From Candidatus Sumerlaeia bacterium (GTDB taxonomy: Bacteria > Sumerlaeota > Sumerlaeia > SLMS01): a stretch of 64,000 nucleotides of DNA. The position numbers and the translations under genes are program-made. Under the pieces are notes generated by a model. The model was not told the DNA's origin, did no database searches, and was given only the letters and a program-made list of their open reading frames with translations. Below, piece after piece: positions 34,591 through 39,957 of the stretch. The DNA is taken from contig JBBQYG010000002.1 of NCBI GenBank assembly GCA_038208905.1, positions 3,626-67,625 of the forward strand, given 5' to 3'. Positions within the stretch are counted from its first letter, which is position 1. Each line of letters starts with the position of its first letter.

Positions 34591-35328
34591 GTGTCCGTGT
34601 CCCCATTCCTTTCCGACGCGTTGTTTGTGTGCGCCCATCCCGACGACGGGGAAATCCTGGCCGGCGGCATGATGGCACGCATGGCGGGGCTGGGCCGCCG
34701 CGTGATCCTGGCCGATGCGACGCGCGGAGAGATGGGCACCCGAGGCAGCGCCGATGAGCGCGCCATCGAGGCCGCAAACGCCGCCGTGATTCTGGGCGTG
34801 GAGCGCGTGAACCTGGGCCTGCCCGATGGCGGCATCGGGCGCGACCTTGAGGTATCGACCCGCGCCGTGGTTTCCGCGATCCGCGAGCATCGCCCGCGCC
34901 TGGTCTTCACCCACACCGGCGGCGACCACCACCCCGACCACAACGCGATCCACGAGGCCACACGGCGCGCGTTCTTCAATTCCAACGTGCTGAAGTATGA
35001 CACCGGCCAGAAGCGCCACGCGGCGCGGCGGCTCTACTACTTCTGGTCCCACCGCACCAACCTGCCCCCGCGGATCGACTTCATCGCCGACATCACGGCA
35101 ACGTGGGAGAAGAAGATGGCCGCCCTGCGCGCGCATCGCAGCCAGGTCGCCGGCACGGGATACCAGGGCGCGGAAACCTTCCTGACGTCTGACCTTTTCT
35201 GGCACCGGATTGAGGCGCGGTTCGGCTACTTCGGCTCGCTGATCAACGTGCGCTATGGCGAGCCGTATCTGGCGGAGGGCGCGCTGCGCATCGACGACCC
35301 GCTCTCGCTCGCCGACGCGGCGGAGTAG
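34591..35328 (+). CDS. PIG-L/LmbE-family N-acetylglucosaminyl deacetylase
   Basis: [14 protein letters not shown] (HPDD.E zinc motif), ...[17 protein letters not shown] (second His cluster). ~245 aa, typical LmbE size. Confidence 0.7.
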
Positions 35329-35338
35329 CCGCGCCAAC

Positions 35339-37225: not shown

Positions 37226-39957
37226 TGGGCTCCGGCAAGTCCGCCCGGCGAAAGAACCGCGTCCGCGCCACCGCCGAAATCCCCGGTCTAAGCGCCGCGC
37301 CACCGCCGCCGATTCCATCCCCACGCCAGATTCCACGCGCCGATCTGTGGGTCGCGGTATTCCTCATTGTATGGGCCACACTCTTCGCCGCGACGCTGCT
37401 GTCGCTCGCCAACGGCCGCAGCTTTCATCAGGACGAGCTGCACGTACTCGCCGTGGAGAAGAAGGCCGAGGTCGGCATCGAGACGGAATCGCAACACCAG
37501 CACTTTCACGCCTTCCAGCACTGGTGGCTCAAGGACCGCCTGAACCAGCGCCACGCGCGCATCCCATCGATTGTTTTCGTGACGCTGGGGATGATCTCGC
37601 TGGCGCTGCTTGCATGGAGGCTGGGGGGCCGAAACGCCGCGGCGGCGGCGGCCCTTGTCTATACACTGTGGCCGAGGGCCTGGGACGACGGACTGGAGAT
37701 GCGCTACTACGGGCTGATCTTTCTGGCGGGGACGCTCGGGTTTCACGCGCTGCTGAGCCTCGCGCGTGGCGCGTTCCTATGGCCCGCGGGGGCGATGGCG
37801 CTCCTCTTCGCCGTCATGGCGCGATGGCACCCGACGGCGATCCCGTTCCACGGCGCCCTGCTGCTCGTGGCGTTTGGCGTGAGCCTGTTGGGAATGATTC
37901 GCCGATTGCGGGAGTGGAACACCCGGAGGGATCCCGCGTCCATCCGCGCCCTCGTGGCCCCATCGCTGGTGGTGGCGATCTCCCTCATCGTGGGCGTCGC
38001 CGTGCTCGGGCGTGTCTATACGCATCTGGGGGGTAGCGCCATTGCGGATCGGTTTGGGAAGCTCGGCGGAGGCAACTACAACCTACTCGATCTGGGACGC
38101 TGGTTTGTGGCGTGGGTGGACGACCGATTCGCGGGGGACTTTCCCGCGATTCGCATTCTTCGACTGTCGTTTCCGGTGCTGGTGGCCGTCGGGCTTTGGA
38201 GGCTCTGGAAGTCGAGCCGCCTGCTGGCGGGTTGCGGCGTGGCGATCCTCGTGCTCCAGCTTGCGCTCGCGGGTGTCTTTTCGCTCGGCTGGGGGCGCGT
38301 GGTCTTTGGATATAAGTATATCACATCCTCCAGCGTGCTCCTCGTGCTGTCGGTTGCCATTGCATCGGCATGGATCGTCGAGGCCGTGCGTCGCCGGTCG
38401 CCCCGCGCCGCAATGGGCGCAGTGTCGGTTCTGGCTCTCGCCTATGCGGTCCCTGTCCTCCCGCGCGTCTATCTTTCCGCAACGGGCGATGGCTCGCACT
38501 TTCGCCAGTTGTGGTCGCGTCTCTTTCTTGAGTCGGGAGTGCGACCCCCAGTCGTCTATGCAACCACCGAGACCACCCAGAGCGTCCGCCCCTACACGGT
38601 CTTGATGCCGAATTTCGCCGCAACGGTCGCCAGCAACCAGGTGCTCTCTCCCGATGTTGTACCCTCGATCTTCCACCGTGACCAGCCGGGCTTCGTGGCT
38701 CTCGATCCCGCGATTCTGGCGCGGATGCCATGGAAGGATTTTCTTACGCCGGTGGAGTCCTATCGCTCTAACTTCGCCCCCGCGTGGGACATCGAGCTGA
38801 TGCGCCCGCGTGGCGATGCGCAGATCGCGGCAGGGGAAGAGTTGCTCCTCGACGGCGTCGCGAATCTCCTCGTCCTCGAACCCGGCCACTGGCGGCTCAA
38901 TGGCGAGGCGACGCTCAGCCTTCCGCAGCCGTGGATGGCCGGAGCCCTTGTCGCCGTCACATCCGCGATGCCCGGCGCGCGGCTTATCCCCGACTATGCG
39001 ACGGGACCAGTCGTCAGGAATCCGATCCTAGCGCGCGTCGGCCCGCTCGACGCCGACAGCCGCCCGCTCTGGCGGGAGAGCCGTCCTGTCTATACGCTCC
39101 TCAGCAACGAGACCCTGGCCTACGACTTCTGGTTCCCCGCTGCGGATTCCCACCTCGTTCTCGGCGGAGCCTCCGACTTTGCCGACCGTGATGGATTCCT
39201 GGTGCAGTTCAACGGCGAGGCTGCGGCGCTCGTTTGCAACATCGAGCCCGCTGCAAGTGGAGCTCCTTTCCTCTATCGCATCGCGGTTCCCGCCAAGTTG
39301 AGCGGGCGCACGGCGCGCGTGACGCTTTCTCGCCTGAGGGACAGCGCCCACTATCTGTCCCCCAAGAAACCGCGCAGCGCGCTCACGCTGGAGTCCGTTC
39401 AAGTCGAGCTGGCGACACCCGACTCGTTGCCGAGCGAGAATTTCCTGCCCACGCTTCGCTTTGCCGCGCGGCCATCGTGGGCCGCCGACGGCAGCTACGA
39501 CGCGGCCACCGATCCATCCCCGTGGAATATCAGCGAACCCACGCGTGGCGTTTCGGGGGTGACGCTCTCCACCACGCGCGAAGGAGTCCGCGCGGCGCTG
39601 GCTCGCGACCTGGGCGAGCAGGGGATCTATACGGAAGCCTTCCCCGTTACCCCCGGGCAGGCGCTGGCCGTTGAGATCCGTCTTCGCCTGCGCCACGCCA
39701 TCACCAAGAGTGCGGTCCCCTTCGTGTACTTCCTGAGCGCGGAGGGCGGCATCATCGCCTTCGATCCCATCGGTGGCCGCCCACTGGACGCGAACGACTG
39801 CGACTGGACCACCCGCATCCGCGTGGGAGAGGCGCCCCCCGGCACGGTCGCGGCCACCATCGCCATCGTCTTCAATTCTCCCCCCGCCGCCAGGCTGAGG
39901 GAGGATACATTTATTGATATACAGGGGATTCGTTTTTTGAACGGCGGGGAACGGTAG
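37225..39957 (+). CDS. Large polytopic membrane protein, GT-C-fold (ArnT/PMT-like) glycosyltransferase candidate with ~450-aa C-terminal extracytoplasmic domain
   Basis: ATG overlaps the regulator stop (TGATG). About 11 predicted TM helices. First loop carries an HQDELHV motif comparable to the DE/DD motif of GT-C transferases. No sequence-level proof of activity. Confidence 0.4.
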   Translation: MGSGKSARRKNRVRATAEIPGLSAAPPPPIPSPRQIPRADLWVAVFLIVWATLFAATLLSLANGRSFHQDELHVLAVEKKAEVGIETESQHQHFHAFQHWWLKDRLNQRHARIPSIVFVTLGMISLALLAWRLGGRNAAAAAALVYTLWPRAWDDGLEMRYYGLIFLAGTLGFHALLSLARGAFLWPAGAMALLFAVMARWHPTAIPFHGALLLVAFGVSLLGMIRRLREWNTRRDPASIRALVAPSLVVAISLIVGVAVLGRVYTHLGGSAIADRFGKLGGGNYNLLDLGRWFVAWVDDRFAGDFPAIRILRLSFPVLVAVGLWRLWKSSRLLAGCGVAILVLQLALAGVFSLGWGRVVFGYKYITSSSVLLVLSVAIASAWIVEAVRRRSPRAAMGAVSVLALAYAVPVLPRVYLSATGDGSHFRQLWSRLFLESGVRPPVVYATTETTQSVRPYTVLMPNFAATVASNQVLSPDVVPSIFHRDQPGFVALDPAILARMPWKDFLTPVESYRSNFAPAWDIELMRPRGDAQIAAGEELLLDGVANLLVLEPGHWRLNGEATLSLPQPWMAGALVAVTSAMPGARLIPDYATGPVVRNPILARVGPLDADSRPLWRESRPVYTLLSNETLAYDFWFPAADSHLVLGGASDFADRDGFLVQFNGEAAALVCNIEPAASGAPFLYRIAVPAKLSGRTARVTLSRLRDSAHYLSPKKPRSALTLESVQVELATPDSLPSENFLPTLRFAARPSWAADGSYDAATDPSPWNISEPTRGVSGVTLSTTREGVRAALARDLGEQGIYTEAFPVTPGQALAVEIRLRLRHAITKSAVPFVYFLSAEGGIIAFDPIGGRPLDANDCDWTTRIRVGEAPPGTVAATIAIVFNSPPAARLREDTFIDIQGIRFLNGGER

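Follow-up and report, generated by a model that had tools for sequence, protein, structure and literature searches.

A probable three-gene operon joining a BshB1-type deacetylase, an FHA-domain sigma-54 activator and a divergent PMT_2-like GT-C protein

The DNA analysed here is a single stretch of 64 kb (the window), GC-rich throughout (58-68%), in which three plus-strand open reading frames (ORFs) fill positions 34591-39957. They encode a zinc deacetylase of the PIG-L/LmbE fold (34591-35328, 245 aa), a sigma-54 enhancer-binding protein (EBP; 35339-37225, with a GTG start, 628 aa) and a membrane protein of 910 aa (37225-39957) that remote homology and a predicted model identify as a probable GT-C glycosyltransferase, a divergent relative of the PMT_2 proteins. 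A preliminary description of this DNA had proposed that the three form a phosphorylation-controlled module for the modification of glycoconjugates. Our analysis leads to a different reading, to which we give a probability of about 0.7: these are three functionally separate genes, probably co-transcribed in this organism only, that is, a lineage-specific operon.

Gene boundaries and the probable transcript

The third-position GC of the three ORFs (0.73-0.89) is of the coding type, and the lengths of their products are identical to those of gene products recorded on an NCBI contig. The deacetylase gene precedes the other two, as the preliminary description had it, and its product matches the PIG-L family directly (PF02585, E 2.7e-25). 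A gap of 10 nt separates it from the EBP gene. At the second junction the stop codon of the EBP gene (TGA, 37223-37225) and the start codon of the GT-C gene (ATG, 37225-37227) have one base, the A, in common; this TGATG overlap had been pointed out before and can be read directly in the sequence. The third product had been put at about 910 residues, and 910 aa is indeed its length, one codon below 911. Residue numbers given here are those of the true protein counted from this ATG: D70/E71 correspond to D71/E72 in alignments A1, A2, A3 and A5 and in both structural models.

The unit has a clear upstream limit. The gene for ribosomal protein S20 (rpsT, 33981-34376, Ribosomal_S20p match) is followed by an intrinsic-terminator-like hairpin and T-run on the plus strand (34413-34454, with the hairpin proper at 34413-34444), which has a 12-bp stem with 11 G-C pairs and a T-rich tail. 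Within 34591-39957 we found no internal terminator comparable to this hairpin, an Rfam scan of the three-gene region returned no regulatory RNA, and the gene 3' of the GT-C gene is convergent, with its stop at 39987. Because a terminator follows rpsT, the genes are separated by a 10-nt gap and a 1-nt overlap with no strong terminator between them, and the downstream gene is convergent, the three genes probably lie on one transcript in this organism. The overlap itself deserves caution: same-strand ORFs that overlap or nearly touch are common in the window, also where the genes are unrelated (as in the run of DUF2254, HAD/PMM-like and ATPase beta genes, at 13927-13930 and 14715-14718), so that TGATG alone is weak evidence for a functional link.

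The GT-C protein: a rare family with remote relatives

No family in Pfam-A or NCBIfam matches the 910-aa protein at E<=0.1, PF13231 (PMT_2) and PF02366 (PMT) included, and its nearest relatives (P0005, P0009, P0013, P0018 and P0023) have no Pfam or NCBIfam match at E<=0.01. Word-index searches of 5.8 billion clusters returned, besides the protein itself, three relatives only, at 33-37% identity. When 1.84 billion representatives were searched exhaustively with a profile of the four closest members, 63 matched, 19 of them at E<=1e-30. The family comprises about 18 full-length representatives among these 1.84 billion proteins, and one traceable member belongs to a metagenome-assembled genome (MAG) of Candidatus Sumerlaeota. 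A search for related loci with the 4-member alignment recovered one genome locus only.

Beyond these close members, the profile searches lead into proteins that carry PF13231 and PF02366. PMT_2 is present in eight of the ten scanned weaker matches of 487-573 aa, which align to the N-terminal 20-250 positions, and in three of the five scanned weaker matches of ~1000 aa: P0024, which aligns to the C-terminal domain of the query, and P0035 and (weakly) P0032, which align to its N-terminal part. A broader profile (A3) retrieves proteins annotated as PMT_2 or PMT at E-values down to 1e-37, some of which their sources name mannosyltransferase, glycosyltransferase family 39 or ArnT-like. As a guard against profile drift, we ran hhalign between an alignment of the 14 close members of the family (A2) and one of 18 PMT_2 proteins (A4). 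The two profiles align with a probability of 99.0% (E 8.1e-18, 369 columns), and the conserved motifs fall into register: SFHQDE on lW.DE, R.PS on R..S (RLPS), E.RYY on E.R.Y, and KY on RY. A further alignment (A5) joined the window protein with the three relatives nearest to it and with 30 retrieved matches, most of which carry PMT_2; compared with the PDB, its profile found ArnT (5ezm, E 3.8e-20) and also Pmt1, Pmt4, STT3 (STT3A), AglB and PglB. In the alignment to ArnT, whose chain numbering is offset by 3, the DE pair falls on ArnT D55/E56 and the tyrosine of the RY motif on ArnT Y345; in the ArnT structure these are reportedly functional residues, with Y345 binding undecaprenyl phosphate.

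The pattern of conservation agrees with these alignments. The sequence HQDEL (H68-L72) directly follows the first transmembrane helix (TM1), and all 14 members have its D70/E71 pair (nt 37432-37437) unchanged. In a larger set of 38 sequences at least 90% conserve the pair, and R112, Y162 and Y365 show no variation across that set. The conserved motifs predicted to face the periplasm are SFHQDEL (66-72), WPRAWDDxLExRYY (149-162), WHPT (201-204), WVDDRF (297-302), KY (364-365) and GDGSH (421-425). The first-loop motif HQDELHV, likened earlier to the DE motif of GT-C transferases, is thus well placed: D70/E71 align to the DE of PMT_2 as well as to that of ArnT.

Topology and predicted fold point the same way. 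Eleven transmembrane helices are predicted in the GT-C core (37336-38484), with the N-terminus in the cytoplasm, and they are followed by a periplasmic C-terminal domain of ~490 aa (38485-39954), in which a small alpha/beta part precedes two beta-sandwich modules; the large periplasmic domain of the preliminary description is recovered here as this soluble region. Arg and Lys form clusters at the N-terminus and at alternate helix ends, those on the predicted cytoplasmic side, and the conserved polar motifs all lie on the opposite face, from which an N-in, C-out topology is predicted. A first model, built from 4 sequences, was poor (pLDDT 57.5) and its Foldseek matches gave only a hint; it is superseded by an AlphaFold model from 34 sequences (pLDDT 78.7, pTM 0.76). 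The newer model shows 11 long membrane helices plus, in the first loop, a pair of short ones, an arrangement also seen in GT-C enzymes, and gives the C-terminal domain a pLDDT of mostly 70-92. Foldseek comparison of this model with the PDB matched the membrane half to STT3, PglB, ALG12 (TM-score on the target, TMt, 0.55), ArnT 5f15 (0.45), AftA and EmbB/C, and the C-terminal half to tandem CBM22 modules (4xup), SGBP-B (7kwb), accessory domains of GH101, BcsB and reelin repeats. The C-terminal domain also occurs in ~1000-aa proteins that carry PMT_2 (P0024). The comparison with ArnT, PglB and PMT structures that had been suggested for this protein therefore came out on the side of GT-C enzymes, and there is no transporter among the 50 best matches of the model.

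Taken at the level of sequence and predicted structure, the 910-aa protein would be a divergent PMT_2-like GT-C glycosyltransferase, most plausibly with a glycan as its acceptor. A further-reaching reading is possible but doubtful: that the protein founds a distinct GT-C family missed by Pfam and NCBIfam, its tandem CBM-like periplasmic domains making it an Emb/Aft-like builder or decorator of polysaccharide in a diderm that is not an actinobacterium, and that its expression was captured, in this one lineage, through translational coupling to the FHA/GAF activator. If this were true, the modification of envelope glycans would rise and fall with expression of the activator itself. Less likely still, the protein may be no glycosyltransferase at all, being instead a catalytically inactive scaffold with the GT-C fold or a membrane protein of another function, for instance a transporter or a polymerase- or ligase-like protein, whose ectodomain binds glycan. 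The lack of a direct match in Pfam or NCBIfam, the failure of the family-only profile to find a solved structure and the moderate TM-scores would fit that view, but the DE after TM1 and the tyrosine before TM10 are invariant among the 14 members, as described above, with Y365 retained throughout the 38 sequences and D70/E71 in nearly all, and the top fold matches for the membrane part are all GT-C enzymes. Because residues that align to the functional ones of ArnT and PMT_2 stay conserved, we would argue for retained catalysis in a GT-C glycosyltransferase.

Deacetylase, activator and the lack of conserved linkage

The deacetylase can be classified more closely than by its fold. Against the BshB1 equivalog of NCBIfam (TIGR04001) it scores 192.5 bits, where the cut-off is 182.5, and the alignment is full-length (residues 9-233 on model positions 3-225 of 226); its scores against the BshB2, MshB and Mca models of the same collection are far under their cut-offs. 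The zinc-site motifs AHPDD and HPDH are both present. Neither a signal peptide nor a transmembrane segment is evident in its sequence, and so its substrate would be a soluble one in the cytoplasm, as for BshB. Because the TIGR04001 score lies above a curated cut-off, the sequence points to the synthesis of a low-molecular-weight thiol rather than to a glycoconjugate-modifying enzyme; we read the protein as most likely a cytoplasmic GlcNAc-malate deacetylase of bacillithiol-like thiol synthesis. The annotation is a hint that this lineage, about which little is known, may contain thiols of the bacillithiol type. The window holds a second gene related to thiol redox chemistry, for a small protein of the Rdx family (SelW/SelT-like, thioredoxin fold; 55005-55310, minus strand), which is convergent to the gene of a Hanks-type kinase.

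The second product of the unit has all the parts of an enhancer-binding protein, each recognized by Pfam: an FHA domain (PF00498, E 2.6e-15; residues 7-94, nt 35357-35620), a GAF domain (E 8e-11; residues 165-293, nt 35831-36217), the AAA+ sigma-54 interaction domain (Sigma54_activat, PF00158, E 4.5e-66; residues 314-482, nt 36278-36784), the AAA lid (AAA_lid_14), and, beyond the lid, a Fis-type helix-turn-helix (HTH_8; residues 587-625, nt 37097-37213). In the FHA domain the residues expected to bind phosphothreonine (GR, SRTH and NG, within residues 25-70) appear intact. The AAA+ domain has a Walker A motif (GETGTGKE), a Walker B motif (LFLDEIGE) and the sequence PGNVRE, and its loop GSFTGA is one substitution away from GAFTGA. 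No equivalog of NCBIfam reaches its cut-off for this protein, and we therefore describe it as a generic sigma-54-dependent regulator of the Fis family.

What might this activator control? No target promoter came to light in the window. A search of the 64 kb for the sigma-54 consensus TGGCAC-N5-TTGCW, with up to 2 mismatches, gave 19 sites where 25 are expected, that is, no enrichment. The 224 nt upstream of the deacetylase gene (bshB1) contain no GG-N10-GC element, and no site matching at 10/12 positions or better lies near the three-gene unit. The best sites inside the unit match at 9/12 positions and all lie in coding sequence; three of them in the EBP gene (36390, TGGCGGCGGAGTTGCA; 35883; 36957) were considered as an internal promoter for the GT-C gene and rejected, since 9/12 matches in coding sequence are expected by chance. 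Moreover, because the stop of the EBP gene overlaps the start of the GT-C gene, there is no space between the two for a promoter that depends on the EBP. The sigma-54 gene itself (rpoN) is not found in the 64-kb window, and neither are target promoters of the EBP.

Comparison with relatives of the GT-C protein reveals whether the three genes travel together. We recovered the gene context of seven divergent relatives (31-52% identity), and in none of these seven loci (L001/L002, L003, L004, L005, L007, L008 and L009) did tblastn with BshB1 and the EBP find either gene. Each has something else upstream of the GT-C gene: a helicase and DprA in L001/L002, a contig end in L003, a divergent UvrD helicase in L004, a coiled-coil protein and a 154-aa ORF in the Candidatus Sumerlaeota MAG (L005), a release factor and an Rsm22 methyltransferase in L007, a divergent TPR protein in L008 and a divergent secretin in L009. 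Both BshB1 and the EBP were found by tblastn only in L006, a metagenome contig that is 99% identical and comes from the same population. The preliminary view of a single coupled unit thus holds for the tight packing and probable co-transcription of the genes; a functional unit finds no support, its adjacency being missing in all seven divergent relatives.

The most informative of these loci is L007. Downstream of the GT-C gene, the window has a convergent block on the minus strand that consists of a GH172 (DUF2961) protein with a LamG domain (39987-42182), a TPR protein (42203-43318) and a class I-II aminotransferase (43382-44599). In L007 (9899-14513) the same block is present in the same order and orientation, at 43% identity for the GH172-LamG protein and 48% for the aminotransferase (the two products compared), and there a 4-nt overlap joins the 3' ends of the GH172 and GT-C genes. 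Of the surroundings of the GT-C gene, only this block is shared with a divergent relative. Since L007 keeps this downstream block and has a different gene upstream, the bshB1-EBP pair sits at a synteny breakpoint, and we regard this neighbourhood as decisive for the conclusion that the linkage is not conserved. The convergence of the GT-C and GH172 genes may be plain synteny or a pairing for glycan turnover; as a sign of functional partnership we set the adjacency aside, because it occurs in two of eight loci only, together with unrelated syntenic genes, and most likely reflects shared ancestry.

Two further observations come from the contexts of relatives. In L003 (3124-11043) the GT-C homologue P0003 adjoins, on the opposite strand, a downstream exopolysaccharide cluster of Wza (Poly_export), Wzc (Wzz and AAA_31), Wzy (Wzy_C) and GT4 genes, a context which hints that the GT-C family acts on surface polysaccharide. 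In L008 (GCA_016125005.1) the GT-C homologue has a Pkinase gene (1-942) ~7 kb upstream of it, probably by coincidence, though the arrangement recalls the kinase gene in the window.

This last gene is central to the idea of phosphorylation control, in which a Hanks kinase would phosphorylate a partner that the FHA domain of the EBP binds, and the EBP would then drive sigma-54-dependent transcription of a glycoconjugate pathway made up of the PIG-L and GT-C enzymes, all in one functional module. The kinase gene with its TPR tail is real (51741-55001), as the preliminary description stated; it lies 11.8 kb downstream of the unit, beyond unrelated housekeeping genes. The genes between, on both strands, encode the GH172, TPR and aminotransferase proteins, a pullulanase, pyruvate kinase, a HAD hydrolase and an ARD dioxygenase, methionine salvage being represented among them, and there is no phosphatase or other FHA partner nearby. 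Several features had made the proposal attractive: the single strand, the 10-nt gap and 1-nt overlap without an internal terminator, the apparently intact GR, SxxH and NG residues and AAA+ motifs of the EBP, the kinase-TPR protein in the same window, and the supported identity of the GT-C protein. Set against these are the missing linkage in all seven divergent relatives, the syntenic L007 included, the classification of the deacetylase as BshB1, the lack of a -24/-12 element upstream of either bshB1 or the GT-C gene, and the overlap that leaves a sigma-54 promoter no room. We consider the module improbable, more so than an inactive or non-enzymatic GT-C protein, and with its failure follow-up work on a signalling-to-glycan system is spared. 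The alternative foreseen for the activator, that it is an orphan whose regulon is unrelated, agrees with the data but falls short of proof.

Least probable of all is a two-step pathway resembling eukaryotic glycosylphosphatidylinositol (GPI) synthesis, where the GT-C mannosyltransferases PIG-M/V/B act after PIG-L: a PIG-L-fold enzyme would de-N-acetylate a GlcNAc lipid or glycan and the GT-C protein would then glycosylate the GlcN conjugate in the periplasm, with the EBP as bystander or regulator, a scheme to which the pairing of both enzyme types in one probable operon, the marginal BshB1 score and the lack of bshA and bshC in the window lend some colour, but which is contradicted by the absence of a PIG-L gene near the GT-C gene in all seven divergent relatives, by the full-length BshB1 match above a curated cut-off and by a deacetylase that, having no evident signal peptide or transmembrane segment, would meet a soluble substrate in the cytoplasm.

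The reading of three functionally separate genes in a lineage-specific operon has points against it as well. Only seven relatives contributed gene contexts, several of them on short contigs, and a metagenome scan with the FHA-GAF part of the EBP matched a single contig, 99% identical and from the same strain. The BshB1 score exceeds its cut-off by only 10 bits, and bshA and bshC were not found among the ORFs of the 64-kb window scanned with Pfam; for these two reasons, some other GlcNAc conjugate could be the substrate of the deacetylase. The assignment of the GT-C protein stands on remote homology and predicted structure, with no direct match to a family model: the 14-member family profile alone found nothing meaningful among PDB sequences (best E 0.99), and the TM-scores that Foldseek gave, counted on the target, are of moderate size (0.34-0.55). 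Finally, with junctions as tight as a 10-nt gap and TGATG, the products are probably co-expressed, and a functional link specific to this lineage is possible.

Elsewhere in the window, several features are worth recording. An ATP synthase operon (14715-22246, plus strand) has the unusual order beta first, then subunit a, a b/delta fusion-like gene, alpha and gamma, which recalls the operons of N-type ATPases; it is preceded by the DUF2254 and HAD/PMM-like genes, with 4-nt overlaps, and includes an ORF (17916-18617) with a match to the VIT1 family of iron transporters. At its very start the window truncates a plus-strand gene (8-6133), whose product, longer than 2041 aa, combines Glycoamylase, GH94 supersandwich (in two stretches) and GH94 catalytic domains; cyclic beta-1,2-glucan synthases or phosphorylases have this domain layout. 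Two paralogues of DUF892 (ferritin-like, YciE/YciF-type) lie 16 kb apart on the plus strand (6376-6984 and 23218-23835), and a phosphoketolase-pathway pair on the same strand, at 8580-9863 and 9803-12232, consists of acetate kinase and then phosphoketolase (XFP). After a protein with a prepilin-type N-methylation motif (24434-25102) come two minus-strand proteins of 684 and 1374 aa (26684-28738 and 28902-33026) made of repeated CarboxypepD_reg/prealbumin-like domains. Between the larger of these and rpsT, ~950 nt (33030-33980) contain no ORF of coding-type composition, and the GC skew dips to -0.139 across 32001-34000.

Proposed mechanism and comparison with known systems

The three products suggest three separate activities. 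By analogy with other enhancer-binding proteins, the EBP would act at -24/-12 promoters some distance away, where its AAA+ domain would remodel the sigma-54 holoenzyme; phosphothreonine binding by the FHA domain and ligand binding by the GAF domain are the likely control inputs. The GT-C protein would transfer a sugar from a polyprenyl-phosphate-linked donor to its acceptor on the periplasmic face of the inner membrane: D70/E71 after TM1, the E, R and Y residues after TM3, and K364/Y365 before TM10 would together form the active site and the site for the donor phosphate, and the two CBM-like beta-sandwiches at the C-terminus would hold a glycan acceptor, as in enzymes of the Emb/Aft type. In practical terms, a hypothetical membrane protein can be reannotated as a divergent PMT_2-like GT-C protein with a CBM-like periplasmic domain, and with D70/E71 and Y365 as candidate catalytic residues.

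It is instructive to compare each product with its best-known counterpart. Sigma-54 activators with an FHA domain have reportedly been described in Myxococcus xanthus (Jelsbak, Givskov & Kaiser 2005, PNAS 102:3010, as cited in PMC12288465). Like them, the EBP has an N-terminal FHA domain in the place of the usual receiver, fused to a sigma-54 AAA+ domain and a Fis-type helix-turn-helix, and its presumed input is Ser/Thr kinase signalling; what sets it apart is an extra GAF domain, which lies between FHA and AAA+, and the loop GSFTGA in place of GAFTGA. EBPs with an FHA input are thus an already described class, of which the added GAF domain is a minor variation. The deacetylase resembles BshB1 over the full length of TIGR04001 and in its AHPDD and HPDH motifs. 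In Bacillus subtilis, however, bshB1 and bshA share one operon, whereas the window gene is not beside bshA, has neither bshA nor bshC in the window with it, and passes the cut-off by the narrow margin given above.

For the GT-C protein the closest comparison is with ArnT and the PMT_2 proteins (PF13231; CAZy GT83/GT39-like; Cupriavidus metallidurans ArnT, 5ezm/5f15). The two share a cytoplasmic N-terminus, a DE pair in the periplasmic loop after TM1, R.PS at the opening of TM2, E.R.Y after TM3 and a tyrosine before TM10 that aligns to ArnT Y345; the likeness is reflected in the profile-profile probability of 99% and in the TMt of 0.45 to 5f15. In contrast, the window protein is too divergent to match PF13231 at E<=0.1, has 11 predicted transmembrane helices where ArnT has 13, carries beta-sandwiches in its C-terminal ~490 aa where ArnT has a small periplasmic domain, and shows the family-specific motifs WPRAWDD, WVDDRF and GDGSH.

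A second comparison is with the mycobacterial enzymes EmbA/B/C and AftA/AftD, which likewise combine a GT-C membrane core with periplasmic domains of the jelly-roll or CBM-like type, and of which 7bvf, 7bve and 8if8 are among the Foldseek matches of the window protein. Here no sequence relationship is detected beyond the superfamily, the TM-scores are low (0.22-0.33), and the Emb proteins have 15 transmembrane helices and two separate periplasmic domains. The hosts differ as well: that of the window is not an actinobacterium, is apparently related to Candidatus Sumerlaeota and, because it has lpxD, is probably a diderm. The superfamily is a known one; the GT-C protein is a new member of it, rare and strongly divergent, whose small family could join the family models by which GT-C enzymes are recognized.

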